In this document: positions 868 to 4,995 of the stretch, piece by piece | Layout of the letters: each line of letters starts with the position of its first letter | Numbering within the stretch: the first letter of the stretch is position 1 | NCBI GenBank assembly: GCA_964347045.1 | Contig: CAYFXC010000001.1 | Location: 96,001-160,000 of the forward strand | DNA: 64,000 bases | Source: an uncultured archaeon | Lineage (GTDB): Archaea > Asgardarchaeota > Hermodarchaeia > Hermodarchaeales > Hermodarchaeaceae | Reading direction: 5' to 3' | Translations under genes and position numbers: made by a program | The notes under the pieces: model-generated | Told to the model about the DNA's origin: nothing | What the model saw: the letters and a program-made list of their open reading frames with translations, nothing else | Databases searched by the model: none

Positions 868-1467
868 TCAGAGCCCCACCTGATTGTAAATCTTTGTGCG
901 ATTCCTCTCTACATTTGCACTAACCTGTTCGAAAAGATTCATTCCTGTTGAATCTATAGATACGATTAATGGGCCAAAATTCTTGACTTCCATAATCCAG
1001 AGTGCTTCTGGCATACCAAGATCAAGCCACTCACCTTTAATAATTCGTCGAATCGCCTTTGCTGCTAAAACAGCTGCTCCACCTGTGAAAGCCCCATAGA
1101 CTGCTCCGTATTTTTTCATTGCCGCAGCTGTTTTAGAACCCATACCTCCCTTTCCAATAATAACTCGTACCCCAAAAGCTTCAATGAATTTGTCTTCAAA
1201 CATTTCCATTCGTGTACTTGTAGTGGGACCCGCTGCGATAACCTCCCACCCTGAATCAGTTTGTTTAACAATTGGCCCACAATGAAAAACACATAATCCA
1301 GTGGGATCAATTGGCAAATCCTTTTTCTCTTCAAACCATTTAAGCGCACGTTCGTGCGCTTCATCGCGGGCGGTGAATATTGTACCAGTGATATGAACAA
1401 TATCGTTGACACGAAGTTTTCTAATTGTTTCTTCGGAGATTGGAGTGGTTAAGTTGTAAGTTGCCAT
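868..1467 (-). CDS. Fe-S hydro-lyase (class I fumarate/tartrate hydratase) beta subunit
   Basis: TARDEAH, GPTTSTRM, IGKGGM and LGMPEA motifs. Confidence 0.92.
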   Translation of the reverse strand: MATYNLTTPISEETIRKLRVNDIVHITGTIFTARDEAHERALKWFEEKKDLPIDPTGLCVFHCGPIVKQTDSGWEVIAAGPTTSTRMEMFEDKFIEAFGVRVIIGKGGMGSKTAAAMKKYGAVYGAFTGGAAVLAAKAIRRIIKGEWLDLGMPEALWIMEVKNFGPLIVSIDSTGMNLFEQVSANVERNRTKIYNQVGL

Positions 1468-1468
1468 G

Positions 1469-2362
1469 TTAGTCGACCTTGTGTGAGGTAAATTTAACTT
1501 CTCCTTCCTTTGTAATTAGGACTGAGGCACGTCTTGCAGCCCAACATTGGACAGCAACACCAACAGGAAATGATGCAGGATGCCTCATTGCCACATCAAT
1601 ATGGACATCCAAAGATGTTGTGTCACCTCCCAATCCCATTGGTCCAATACCTGTCTGATTAATTGCGGATAATAGCTCTTCTTCCATTTTAGCAATTTTA
1701 GAATCAAGGTGACGTTGTCCTACAGGTCTGAGTAATTGTTCTTTAGCAATTTTCATGCAGATATCGGCACCTCCCCCTATCCCTATTCCAAGAATCGTAG
1801 GTGGGCAGGGTTTTGCTCCGGCATCAATTACAGAATCAATCACAAATCGCTTCATCCCCTTCAATCCTTGTCCTGGGGTTAGCATGCCAAGTTGACAGAC
1901 ATTTTCTGAACCCCCACCTTTTGGCAAGGCAGTAATTTCTAGATTAGTTCCCTTAACAATTTTCCAATTAATCCATGGAATATGAAGACCTGTATTATCT
2001 CCAGGATTCTTTTGCAAAATTGGGTTTACAGTATTAGGACGCAGTGGAATTTCTTGTGTTGCTCTTTGGACCGCGTGTTTGAGAATAATTGGAAGCTGGT
2101 CTAGTAAAGGAAATTTTGCTCCGACGGACAAATAGAATATTTGAATTCCTGTATCTTGACACATTGGAATTGAACGAGTTCTTGCAAGACTAACATTATC
2201 TAAGATCGCTTGGAGTTGGCTTTTGGCGGTTTTGTTCCGCTCTTTTTCAAAAGCTCGTTTAAGACCTTCAGATACATCTAGTGGTAAATCGGTAACAGCC
2301 AATCGAAGAAGATCTACTACTGTATCTTCTAAAAAAGAAACTTGCAAACTCAAACTCTCCAT
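1469..2362 (-). CDS. Fe-S hydro-lyase (class I fumarate/tartrate hydratase) alpha subunit
   Basis: CQDTG, PKGGGSEN, CPP, GIGPMGLGG and QCWAAR motifs; adjacent to the beta subunit. Confidence 0.92.
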   Translation of the reverse strand: MESLSLQVSFLEDTVVDLLRLAVTDLPLDVSEGLKRAFEKERNKTAKSQLQAILDNVSLARTRSIPMCQDTGIQIFYLSVGAKFPLLDQLPIILKHAVQRATQEIPLRPNTVNPILQKNPGDNTGLHIPWINWKIVKGTNLEITALPKGGGSENVCQLGMLTPGQGLKGMKRFVIDSVIDAGAKPCPPTILGIGIGGGADICMKIAKEQLLRPVGQRHLDSKIAKMEEELLSAINQTGIGPMGLGGDTTSLDVHIDVAMRHPASFPVGVAVQCWAARRASVLITKEGEVKFTSHKVD

Positions 2363-2385: not shown

Positions 2386-2976
2386 CTAGGTTCCTATCTT
2401 TTTAGGTTGTGCAAGTTTCGATCCAAGCAATATTTTTCGTAAAATTCCTTGTAGGATTTCTAGTGTGAATGTGCCTTGGATTGCTATGGTTTCAAAAATC
2501 GACGATGTACCATTTATTCCAAGAGTGTTGATTAATTCAAATCGACTAATCGCGGGTAATATATCTCGCTTGTTTAATGCAAAAATCACAGGGATTTCAT
2601 CTGAAAGTTTATCCCCGAAGAACCCCTTTAGCTCTTCCCAACAACGTTGATTTTCAGTTATTAGATTCGGATTTGAATCTGCTACAAAAACGATACCATC
2701 GGTTCCTGCTAGAACCGTTGATCGAGTCTCTGCGTAATAGTCTTGACCAGTTGCTGACCAGATATGAATTTGTATAGTCCATTCCCCATGGGAAAGTTCA
2801 ATAGGTCCGTAATCAAAAAAAAGAGTTCTTCCTGAAGTTGTTTCAATTGATTCAAGTCGAGAAAAAATATTGAGACGATGAAATAGGGCTCGAATGCTAG
2901 CCGTTTTTCCGCTCATAGCGGGACCATAATATACGATTTTCGTTTGAATAATTCGTTGACTCCAATCAATTAGCAT
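2386..2976 (-). CDS. MglA-family small GTPase
   Basis: KIVYYGPAMSGKT (G1), GRTLFFD switch I, ATGQ (G3), DGIVFVADS, NKRD (G4). Confidence 0.9.
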   Translation of the reverse strand: MLIDWSQRIIQTKIVYYGPAMSGKTASIRALFHRLNIFSRLESIETTSGRTLFFDYGPIELSHGEWTIQIHIWSATGQDYYAETRSTVLAGTDGIVFVADSNPNLITENQRCWEELKGFFGDKLSDEIPVIFALNKRDILPAISRFELINTLGINGTSSIFETIAIQGTFTLEILQGILRKILLGSKLAQPKKIGT

Positions 2977-2997
2977 GAGTGTTTTTCCCTCAATTGA

Positions 2998-3888
2998 TTA
3001 GATTGTCCAGAATCCTTCTAATCGATCTCCAAACGTTTGTCCTGCACCATCTTGCACAGAAGTCTGGAAGTCTTCGCCCCATTCCGCTTTAATGAACTCC
3101 ATTAATCGATCAATCGATGCTCCCCTATAATCAATTGCTTGTCGTAGCATTTTGTCAGAAATTACAGATTTTACTCCAACTTCTTGTAGCAAACGGAGAC
3201 GCATTAGGATAATCATAACTCTCCAAGCGGCTTCGACAAAAGCTTGAATGTGTTCCTTGTACAGACTTTGACTCACACGATCTTCTTCATGGTTGAGATC
3301 TACTAAGCTCCTTTCAAGTCGATTACTGACTTTCCCTTGTGCTGCACGTTTTAGAATTCGTGTAATTCTCTCAATCTTTGTTCGTGTTTCCGATGTAACC
3401 TTTTCTAATAATTTCAACTCAAAACTAGTATCAGAAAACCCCTCTGAACTTCCATTAGATTCTATCGTGAGCTTGCCTTTTTCAAATCGTAAAGTTAATG
3501 GTGATGTTGAGGTTTGGGCAAAAGCTTGGTAGATTTCATGCAAATGTGTTTTGTCGGTAGCAATTACCCATCCTCGAAAATCAAGTATCTGATTGGATAC
3601 TAGTTGTGCCGCAGATGATGGAACACGATAAATCAAACGTTCTCCGTTATAGTCACCCTTCTCATGGAGAACCATCTGCTCATGTTCTGAATAGGAAACA
3701 AAATCTGATCCAAAAACCATCTCGCGGCGATGTGGTACAAGTTTTACTAGGGACTCAGCAATTATATCCACTGACTCTTGGGATTCGCTGAAAATAATGA
3801 TTGGATATCTATCTAACACTGAGCGTAACACAATTGCTAATTGTTTTCTCCCTAGGGTATACAAACCATTATCCAGAAACGTATTCAT
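2998..3888 (-). CDS. Hypothetical protein with DENN-core-like N-terminal half
   Basis: LYTLGRKQLAIVLRSVLDRYPIIIFSESQESVDIIAESLVKLVP follows the cDENN pattern by eye; helical C-terminal half; ATGA overlap with the upstream roadblock gene. Confidence 0.55.
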   Translation of the reverse strand: MNTFLDNGLYTLGRKQLAIVLRSVLDRYPIIIFSESQESVDIIAESLVKLVPHRREMVFGSDFVSYSEHEQMVLHEKGDYNGERLIYRVPSSAAQLVSNQILDFRGWVIATDKTHLHEIYQAFAQTSTSPLTLRFEKGKLTIESNGSSEGFSDTSFELKLLEKVTSETRTKIERITRILKRAAQGKVSNRLERSLVDLNHEEDRVSQSLYKEHIQAFVEAAWRVMIILMRLRLLQEVGVKSVISDKMLRQAIDYRGASIDRLMEFIKAEWGEDFQTSVQDGAGQTFGDRLEGFWTI

Positions 3889-4811
3889 CGAGCGATCGCC
3901 TCCAAAAAACCATCAACATCTATTGTGGGTTTTTGTGCTGAAGGTGCCTTTTGTAATACTGATTCGATTTCAGCAATGAAATTTGGAATAATTAATCTAA
4001 GCAAGCCGAGACGCATAGAGTCCTTCCGAATTAAGGTACTGAACAGGCCTCCTGCTAATCGATAGATAAAGTGTTGTTTAGACCCACAATCGCATAGTAC
4101 CTGAAGTATCCTAGTTCGTTTCACTAGTTGAGCAACTTTTCGAGAAGTGTCAAAGAGCGTGTAGGTTAGGGTGGAATTGCGAATACGCATTCCTTCGTTA
4201 TAGCGCTGTGTTGGAATTAAGTAACCACCTTCAAGACAGACCTCGCCAGTTTGAGCGGAAGGTAAGGCTTGAAGAAAATCAGTGACAATTGCAGATATCT
4301 GTTGAGCCGCATTTTCTGTAATGGTTAAATTTAGGGTGCCCGTGGACCAAGCCCGTTGAGGCCCTTCTCGAACGTTGAATGCATTGAAAATTTGAGTGCG
4401 TTCCGCCCTCTCAAAGGATCGTAAAGGTGGAATAAATTGCTCATTCCAAAGTGCTTCGTCTAAATGGGTTATAGTCCTCTCTAATTGTAATAACAGGGCT
4501 CCTAAATTGCTGTGGCTTTGGGTAGTAACAGTAACAAAATAGTTTGCTGCTCGCGGAAGAGTGGCTAATAAAAACTTACTTCGTTCTCCTTCAATTAACA
4601 CATATGATAACTCATCATGGAGCCGTTGGGCCACTGATAAAATGGCAGCAGCTGAAGAAGATAAACCAAAAATCTCATTTTCTGACAACCACACTCCACT
4701 GCTTGAAATTGGATAACCATCCCTTTGGACTAGTACAGAATTTTCTACGCCAGGAACTGCTTTGATATTTTGCAAATGTAAATTGAACTGATCTATCATT
4801 TTACCTGGCAT
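3885..4811 (-). CDS. Tandem roadblock/LC7 (MglB-like) domain protein
   Basis: VPGVENSVLVQRDGYPI...LSSSAAAIL...VLIEGERSK...NLGALL is a canonical roadblock; second degenerate copy ends MRLGLLRL. Start moved to ATG 4811 because the longer ORF runs into the tRNA. Confidence 0.8.
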   Translation of the reverse strand: MPGKMIDQFNLHLQNIKAVPGVENSVLVQRDGYPISSSGVWLSENEIFGLSSSAAAILSVAQRLHDELSYVLIEGERSKFLLATLPRAANYFVTVTTQSHSNLGALLLQLERTITHLDEALWNEQFIPPLRSFERAERTQIFNAFNVREGPQRAWSTGTLNLTITENAAQQISAIVTDFLQALPSAQTGEVCLEGGYLIPTQRYNEGMRIRNSTLTYTLFDTSRKVAQLVKRTRILQVLCDCGSKQHFIYRLAGGLFSTLIRKDSMRLGLLRLIIPNFIAEIESVLQKAPSAQKPTIDVDGFLEAIAR

Positions 4812-4879
4812 TTTCTGGTTGCTCCACAAGTTGGAGCAGTTTACCATATAAAAACCAACAAAAGTAACCGATGGTGAAA

Positions 4880-4995
4880 TGGTGCGGGGGGTGGGATTCG
4901 AACCCACGAAGGTCTACACCACAGGAGCCTCAGTCCTGCCCCTTTAGTCGGAGCGGGTAAACCACGTTCCTTAGACCATGCTCGGGTACCCCCGC
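4880..4995 (-). tRNA. tRNA-Leu(GAG) with 28-nt D-loop intron (~21/22; ~4944-4971), CCA encoded
   Basis: GCGGGGG/CCCCCGC acceptor stem, CT-GAG-GC loop, long variable arm, GTTCGAATC; insert has GGTC/GACT 4-bp helix with 3-nt bulges. Confidence 0.93.

Follow-up and report, generated by a model that had tools for sequence, protein, structure and literature searches.

In eukaryotes, membrane traffic and nutrient signalling are organised by small GTPases together with their roadblock/longin and DENN regulators. The locus described here, which comes from an Asgard archaeon, raises the question of whether a small GTPase and regulators of these kinds can be united in one archaeal operon, and of how they would act on each other. 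It lies within a stretch of 64,000 nucleotides (the window), and all positions are those of the window. We identified a tight three-gene operon in which an MglA-type small GTPase is encoded together with its two likely regulators, one a protein with two roadblock domains and the other a DENN protein resembling folliculin. The components, the distribution of the operon and the evidence bearing on its function are described below.

Layout and conservation of the operon

A direct check of the open reading frames confirms all three genes on the minus strand: the tandem-roadblock protein (308 aa, 3885..4811), the DENN-fold protein (296 aa, 2998..3888) and the MglA-family small GTPase (196 aa, 2386..2976). 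An earlier note on this DNA had described three co-directional genes, the first overlapping the 296-aa frame by ATGA and the GTPase following 21 bp later, and the junctions read in the sequence agree with this description. The ATGA at 3885-3888 combines the roadblock stop with the start of the DENN gene, and a 21-nt spacer (2977-2997) lies between the DENN gene and the ATG of the GTPase gene (2976). The operon is translationally packed, and its gene order is kept across Asgard families.

The roadblock frame could also be read from a GTG start as 340 aa reaching 4907. Since this longer frame overlaps a tRNA-like gene (4880..4995), and since the roadblock homologues are about 308 aa long in 43 of 43 cases, we take the ATG at 4811 to be the right start. 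The tRNA-like gene, also on the minus strand and carrying a CCA end, forms the upstream boundary of the operon. It was detected with Rfam through the tRNA-like ends of the tmRNA model (19.8 bits, E 8.8e-6), whereas an ARAGORN search upstream of the operon called no tRNA. Between this gene and the operon, an A/T-rich, TATA-like element on the minus strand (4846..4854), roughly 35-43 nt before the first start codon, may be an archaeal promoter. Downstream, genes for both fumarate hydratase subunits, alpha and beta, follow on the same strand after a gap of 23 nt.

The family of the middle protein is represented by a single gene in each of 164 of the 301 Asgard genomes sampled; of the 90 high-quality genomes, 66 have it. 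No member was found in about half of the sampled genomes, including 19 of the 30 families. Of 50 loci sampled in other genomes, from nine families, 49 show the genes in the order roadblock, DENN, GTPase, and the arrangement is therefore far beyond chance. This conserved synteny supports the proposal of the earlier note that a DENN-like gene sits inside an mglB-mglA pair. In one genome (G137) the roadblock and GTPase genes are directly adjacent and the DENN gene is located elsewhere, a layout that fits a core mglB-mglA-like pair with the DENN gene in between.

The GTPase and the roadblock protein

Among solved structures the best relative of the third gene product is MglA (3t12_A, E 1.1e-27, 100 bits). 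The match to M. xanthus MglA has an E value of 4e-24, compared with 29 bits (E 8e-6) for Arf1 and 24 bits (E 2e-4) for Rab11. The P-loop (GPAMSGKT) and the NKxD motif are invariant across 26 orthologues, and the G5 motif is likewise present. Also invariant in these orthologues are GRT in switch I (G49, R50, T51) and TGQ in switch II (T76, G77, Q78), and G3 carries Ser where Asp is usual. Arg50 aligns with the arginine of MglA and Gln78 with its glutamine, so that the intrinsic Arg and catalytic Gln noted earlier are indeed retained. Closest relatives and motifs together place the gene product in the MglA family, as a GTPase that carries its own arginine in switch I and glutamine in switch II.

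The first gene product begins with a roadblock domain (about residues 1-122, 4446..4811, minus strand) that matches Pfam Robl_LC7 over the cut-off (E 2.2e-6) and the PDB entries 7f8m (E 1.5e-5) and 7yh1 (E 1.3e-3), and in which Q29, D31, G32 and P34 are invariant in the family. Its second half (about residues 158-296, 3924..4340, minus strand) was recognised by comparison of profiles. In hhalign the N-terminal half aligns with the C-terminal half over 114 columns (probability 93%, E 2.8e-7), and a profile of the C-terminal half matches solved Roadblock/LC7 chains (9jue_D, 3.1e-9; 3leq, 1.4e-5; 7f8m, 1.2e-3) as well as MglB at 0.01. The Atlas feature neighbours of this half are Robl_LC7 clusters. 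By these profile matches the second half is a roadblock domain in its own right, and the two roadblock domains would make the polypeptide a covalent counterpart of the MglB roadblock dimer. The two roadblock domains proposed for this protein are thus confirmed, and the internal duplication is compatible with the suggestion that they form a single-chain MglB pseudo-dimer, as predicted from sequence.

Past the second domain the protein ends in a short tail (3888..3923, minus strand), which is alignable in all 34 of 34 family members and in which the spacing of hydrophobic residues is conserved. By analogy, this tail may be the counterpart of the MglB Ct-helix (PMC6785124).

The middle protein

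Profile searches at the level of sequence gave few matches for the second gene product. Pfam and NCBIfam scans of the protein itself returned nothing meaningful, and neither Pfam DENN nor Folliculin_C matched at the operon locus in a search of the complete genome. Three of 53 family members match Folliculin_C under the cut-off (best E 4.8e-4); a Pfam scan of ten divergent members did not locate the carriers of these matches. Searches of PDB sequences with phmmer and the family HMM recovered no DENN chain, and a ferritin match in the PDB sequence search (E 0.006) was rejected as spurious.

The predicted structure points to the DENN fold. An AF2 model built from 53 diverse sequences (pLDDT 88.7, pTM 0.86) was compared with 48,161 PDB cluster representatives in an exhaustive VIA structure search. 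The best match is the C-terminal domain of folliculin (Z 12.2 over 186 aa; 3v42, Z 12.0 over 188 of 199 aa), followed by DENND10 (11.9), C9orf72 (10.2), DENND1A (10.0) and SMCR8 (9.4). Folliculin and these four proteins make up five of the top seven rows (Z 9.4-12.2, 185-202 residues), and FNIP2 comes next at Z 7.2. The top Foldseek match is DENND1B (probability 1.00), with cDENN and dDENN both covered. The best named neighbours in the Atlas language-model space are C9orf72-like (0.94) and Folliculin_C/SMCR8_C (0.92), then SPA, Avl9 and DENND11, every one of them a member of the DENN superfamily. The DENN-like character that the earlier note had assigned to the 296-aa frame is borne out by all three comparisons.

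In the model, an alpha/beta, cDENN-like core (about residues 10-145, 3454..3861, minus strand) is followed by an all-helical, dDENN-like part (about residues 148-296, 3001..3447, minus strand) with helices at 155-183, 199-236, 245-270 and 287-294. R27, P29, R54, E76, R84 and W107 are near-invariant in the core. The modelled core starts at about residue 10 of 296, so that the N-terminal longin (uDENN) lobe is absent, and none of 89 family representatives carries a fusion to a roadblock/longin domain or to a GTPase. On the predicted structure, the second gene thus encodes a stand-alone DENN-fold protein, with cDENN and dDENN but no longin lobe, that is closest to the folliculin C-terminal domain.

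A candidate GTPase switch and its relatives

We consider it probable that the conserved Asgard operon is a self-contained small-GTPase switch, in which a roadblock GAP-type platform and a DENN partner act on an MglA-type GTPase. The GAP/GEF/GTPase reading of the earlier note is supported in this sense, as a prediction of function; of the observations that the note had named as refuting, neither the lack of a DENN fold nor a loss of gene order was borne out. The double roadblock protein would dock on the GTPase at its switch face, in the manner of MglB on MglA, and would position the GTPase's own Arg50 and Gln78 so as to speed hydrolysis, which is the role of a GAP. The DENN protein would join this platform, and the two regulators would recreate in trans the longin/roadblock, DENN and d-DENN layout of eukaryotic DENN/folliculin modules. 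The DENN protein would then either act as an exchange catalyst, like DENND1 on Rab35, or tune or localise the platform. The output of the switch may lie in polarity or in the recruitment of membrane or cytoskeleton. Counting against such a switch are the distant DENN gene of G137 and the sampled Asgard genomes, about half, that showed no family member. A complex prediction for all three chains, in which the DENN protein served as partner, gave no answer (score 0.00, without controls), which speaks neither for nor against binding.

To our knowledge, no GEF role has been demonstrated for the folliculin DENN domain in its complex. For MglA, the MglB roadblock dimer is a GAP and, through its Ct-helix, also a GEF (PMC6785124; PMC13408092), so that MglB alone is able to supply both activities (PMC13408092). 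For these two reasons the DENN protein need not be the exchange factor. It is possible, though less probable, that it is no GEF, and that the roadblock protein alone has both activities, stimulating hydrolysis by placing Arg and Gln and promoting exchange through its C-terminal tail. In that case the DENN protein would serve as a scaffold, a localisation factor or an effector that senses the state of the GTPase, like the non-catalytic DENN domains of folliculin and FNIP. The dual activity conferred by the MglB Ct-helix is consistent with this division of labour, as are the conserved tail past the second roadblock domain, a closest fold that is folliculin-C and not DENND1, and the adjoining roadblock and GTPase genes in G137. 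However, the DENN gene is conserved and coupled, through the ATGA overlap, as strictly as the other two (49 of 50 loci), and the near-invariant charged residues of its product (R27, R54, E76, R84, E157 and E269) suggest a specific interaction or catalytic surface.

Far less probable is a reading of the middle protein as a degenerate P-loop NTPase or RecA-like domain with a helical tail, whose DENN matches would reflect a shared alpha/beta sandwich only. An initial AF2 model, based on 25 close homologues, was of low quality (pLDDT 62) and was replaced; it matched only generic P-loop-type folds (Z 7-9.6). With the better model GspE, FlaI and STAND NTPases are still found at Z 8-9.9, and the DENN fold leads the P-loop NTPase folds by no more than about 2 Z units, with GspE at Z 9.9 matching mainly the alpha/beta half. 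However, Walker A (GxxxxGK[ST]) occurs in none of the 53 family members, the equivalent loop being acidic with the consensus G-D-D/S-x-E, and we rejected membership among the P-loop NTPases on this ground. The NTPase matches mostly involve residues 1-150, whereas those to the DENN family span residues 2-278 of the model and rank first. The language-model neighbours and the few Pfam matches likewise indicate the DENN superfamily, and DENN is the published annotation.

That the three genes are neighbours by chance or by shared transcription only, for example in a convenience co-transcription with the nearby same-strand fumarate hydratase genes, is scarcely credible against an order held at 49 of 50 loci in nine families, coding regions that overlap or nearly abut, and a roadblock-MglA pair that is a textbook pairing of regulator and GTPase.

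The probable switch encoded by the operon resembles several known systems in part. With MglA-MglB of Myxococcus xanthus and Thermus thermophilus it shares the intrinsic switch-I Arg, the catalytic Gln and a G3 without Asp, as well as an adjacent roadblock-partner gene and two roadblock domains per GTPase. However, those domains form a homodimer in MglB, whereas the Asgard operon fuses them in a single chain and places a DENN-fold gene between the roadblock and GTPase genes. Its host is an archaeon, and neither RomR/RomX or Frz nor a motility context was seen.

The folliculin-FNIP and C9orf72-SMCR8 complexes, which act on Rag or Arf GTPases, likewise bring together a small GTPase, a dimeric platform of longin/roadblock type and a DENN part, which in folliculin is the best fold match of the middle protein. 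In contrast to these complexes, the Asgard operon encodes the longin/roadblock and DENN parts as separate proteins, has a single DENN protein and no heterodimer, and pairs them with an MglA-type GTPase; its platform domains match roadblock and not longin profiles. The DENND1A/B-Rab35 GEF module provides the top Foldseek match. However, the Asgard protein lacks the uDENN/longin lobe and shares about 10% sequence identity with DENND1A/B, and its GEF role is a candidate one only.

A Roadblock/small GTPase/DENN operon conserved in most Asgard archaea has been described as a folliculin/Ragulator-like candidate GEF module (Liu et al. 2020; 10.1101/2020.10.19.343400, section 10). The components, phylum and interpretation are the same, and we equate that operon with the present one by its description. 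A claim to novelty therefore does not stand, the operon and the folliculin/Ragulator analogy having already been put forward (Liu et al., bioRxiv 2020/Nature 2021). Refinements only are new: the GTPase, termed Rab-like by Liu et al., is clearly of the MglA family; the roadblock protein, termed LAMTOR1-like, is a two-domain tandem and predicted single-chain pseudo-dimer; and the predicted DENN protein is without a longin lobe. These alter the suitable assays and structural templates, which would be those for an intrinsic-arginine MglA-type GTPase, a roadblock tandem and a longin-less DENN protein. Because the idea is already published, the value of the locus lies in experiment and not in discovery.

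Most Asgard GTPase genes do not share an operon with a roadblock, longin or TRAPPC3 gene (Tran et al. 2024). The present operon is one of few Asgard cases in which genome layout pairs a GTPase with likely regulators, and it therefore offers a small, soluble, ready-made test system for pre-eukaryotic DENN/roadblock regulation, with a bearing on how the trafficking switches of eukaryotes arose.

Asgard proteins that match Folliculin_C form a separate family (f4) of fused longin+DENN proteins. This family is weakly linked to that of the middle protein, with which it aligns in hhalign over the first helix-strand-helix (probability 72%, E 3.4e-5), and the neighbours of its genes gave no match to the roadblock or GTPase profiles of the operon. 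More doubtfully, the operon might represent a pre-fusion state of the eukaryotic longin-DENN module, with an unfused DENN protein and a pseudo-dimeric roadblock protein assembling in trans on an MglA-type GTPase. If so, DENN/folliculin-type regulators would have arisen as partners of MglA-like switches, and fusion to longin and redeployment to Rab, Rag and Arf GTPases would have come later. The split DENN family and the fused longin+DENN proteins have a roughly complementary distribution among Asgard families, which would then mark the transition.

Layout and boundaries of the operon

The operon consists of three ORFs, all on the minus strand of the window, which encode a roadblock protein (4811..3885), a middle protein of 296 aa (3888..2998), and a GTPase of 196 aa (2976..2386). 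A mechanical ORF list puts the start of the roadblock gene further out, at a GTG at 4907. Judged from the sequence, the ATG at 4811 that the earlier note gave is the true start, because the extension to 4907 enters a tRNA-like gene and all 43 roadblock homologues are approximately 308 aa long. The ATGA overlap between the roadblock stop and the middle-gene start, and the 21-nt spacer before the GTPase start, both described in the same note, were seen on direct reading of the junctions; the spacer contains a purine-rich stretch. Some 40 nt ahead of the roadblock ATG is a TATA-like A/T-rich element, from which we infer a possible promoter of the operon.

The tRNA-like gene (4880-4995, minus strand) is located directly upstream of the operon. 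It is 116 nt long with a CCA end and matches the tRNA-like ends of the Rfam tmRNA model (19.8 bits); ARAGORN made no call at this position. The length points to an intron-containing class II tRNA. Downstream of the GTPase gene, after a gap of only 23 nt, the same strand carries genes for the alpha (2362..1469) and beta (1467..868) subunits of class I fumarate hydratase (868-2362 together).

Identities of the three proteins

The N-terminal domain of the roadblock protein matches Pfam Robl_LC7 above cut-off, as well as the solved Asgard roadblock 7f8m. Because the C-terminal half gave no match of its own, three further tests were run on it. Profile-profile comparison of the two halves gave 93% probability (E 2.8e-7, 114 columns). 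A profile of 20 C-terminal halves matched the solved Roadblock/LC7 chains 9jue_D (3.1e-9), 3leq (1.4e-5) and 7f8m (1.2e-3), and MglB at 0.01, and the language-model neighbours of this half are Robl_LC7 clusters. On these sequence comparisons the protein is a tandem of two roadblock domains, as had been proposed. Beyond the second domain the chain ends in a short conserved C-terminal tail. The Ct-helix of MglB confers exchange activity on that protein (PMC6785124), and comparing the tail with this helix gives no more than a lead.

The middle protein has no match in Pfam, NCBIfam or PDB sequences. Its family is length-conserved (~296 aa): 64 matches came from a word-index search, the named ones belonging to Thor-, Hermod-, Hod- or Promethearchaeota, and 89 members, none carrying a fused roadblock or GTPase domain, from an exhaustive HMM search over 1.84 billion representatives. 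A structural model built from 25 close homologues was poor; another, built on 53 diverse members, has a pLDDT of 88.7 and a pTM of 0.86. In the latter, residues ~10-145 form an alpha/beta domain and a helical domain comes after it. Foldseek places the GEF domain of DENND1B first (E 1.4e-3, probability 1.00) and lists DENND1A and DENND10 as well. In a second, independent fold search over 48,161 PDB representatives the folliculin C-terminal domain ranked first (6nzd_H, Z 12.2, 186 aa; 3v42_B, Z 12.0, 188/199 aa), followed by DENND10 (11.9), C9orf72 (10.2), DENND1A (10.0), SMCR8 (9.4) and FNIP2 (7.2). These DENN-superfamily matches all cover residues 2-278. No P-loop NTPase scores above Z 9.9, and for the most part these matches are limited to the first 150 residues; no member of the family contains a Walker A motif. 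The closest named ESM-Atlas clusters carry C9orf72-like, Folliculin_C/SMCR8_C, SPA, Avl9 and DENND11 domains, and three of the 53 members have weak Pfam Folliculin_C matches. We conclude that the middle protein, which the earlier note had called DENN-like, has a predicted DENN fold nearest to folliculin-C, with cDENN and dDENN parts and without the longin lobe. The margin of the modeled fold over generic alpha/beta folds is moderate.

The closest solved relatives of the GTPase are MglA of T. thermophilus (3t12_A, E 1.1e-27) and M. xanthus (4e-24), versus only 29 bits to Arf1 and 24 bits to Rab11. Arg50, within the GRTLFFD motif, aligns with the MglA intrinsic arginine and Gln78 with the catalytic glutamine, consistent with the MglA-type assignment made before. 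A serine replaces the usual G3 aspartate, which MglA likewise lacks. All 26 orthologues taken from other Asgard genomes keep the segments GPAMSGKT, G49-R50-T51, T76-G77-Q78 and N135-K136-x-D138 unchanged. The window's genome has 14 small-GTPase matches, among which the operon GTPase (280 bits to the family profile) is by score the clear family orthologue. The next, a second MglA-like paralogue (146 bits), is found ~22 kb past the window end (G000:C1:182496-183020).

Distribution and gene order

By profile search, 164 of the 301 genomes sampled from the phylum contain the middle-protein family, each as a single copy; among high-quality genomes the figure is 66 of 90. It is near-universal in the Asgard families f6 (74/76), f9 (57/68), f1 (14/18), f2 (4/4) and f14 (4/4), and was not found in f4 (0/29), f21 (0/21), f13 (0/11) or f27 (0/11). 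The roadblock-DENN-GTPase order is present in 49 of 50 loci from nine families, so the gene order is conserved across Asgard families, in line with the original reading. In the sole exception, genome G137, the roadblock gene is immediately next to the GTPase gene, with 28 nt between them (G137:C76:1728-3330), and the DENN gene is solitary on another contig (G137:C139:19453-20346, L048). Its congener G209 has the canonical trio. The G137 arrangement may reflect a genuine rearrangement or a mixed MAG.

Family f4 encodes fused proteins of ~330 aa (L002-L018, e.g. L013:973-1953; flanking ORFs ~100-117 aa), in which the N-terminus is longin/roadblock-like and the DENN part matches Pfam Folliculin_C. 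They occur in 13 of 29 f4 genomes, versus none of 29 for the split operon, and this complementary pattern may reflect alternative solutions, one fused and one split. Their alignment to the middle-protein family is confined to the first helix-strand-helix (hhalign 72%, E 3.4e-5).

In genus g10 of f9 (L033-L047), an extra small-GTPase-like ORF is found on the opposite strand ~500 nt downstream of the operon. It matches the operon GTPase at E ~1e-9 and is absent beside the operon in the window's genome.

Proposed mechanism and relation to published work

Our analyses show what each of the three proteins is and that their linkage is tight and conserved. By analogy with MglA-MglB (PMC6785124, PMC13408092), the tandem roadblock would serve, within one chain, as an MglB-like platform and provide GAP activity by orienting the Arg and Gln of the GTPase itself. 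As in DENND1-Rab35 and folliculin, the DENN protein might dock on this platform and rebuild a longin/roadblock-DENN module in trans, with a role in nucleotide exchange or as a scaffold or effector. The latter role is a serious rival to exchange, because MglB on its own can serve as both GAP and GEF (PMC6785124; PMC13408092); we consider it less likely than not.

A folliculin-analogous candidate GEF was previously proposed for an Asgard operon whose GTPase lies outside the Rag family (Liu et al., 10.1101/2020.10.19.343400). That operon matches the present one in all but wording, and the operon and its reading are thus already known. The observation is confirmed, and the first interpretation, a roadblock, DENN-like and MglA-type module, is supported as real and correctly interpreted. 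Asgard DENN domains, MglA-like GTPases and longin GAP motifs come up in later papers; we found no experimental or structural study of the trio in the literature searched. To the published account we add that the GTPase is MglA-type, not Rab-like, that the roadblock protein is a tandem and the DENN protein longin-less and folliculin-C-like, together with numbers for distribution and synteny and one genome where the DENN gene lies apart from the roadblock-GTPase pair. The trio could serve as a tractable model for the regulation of small GTPases before eukaryotes.
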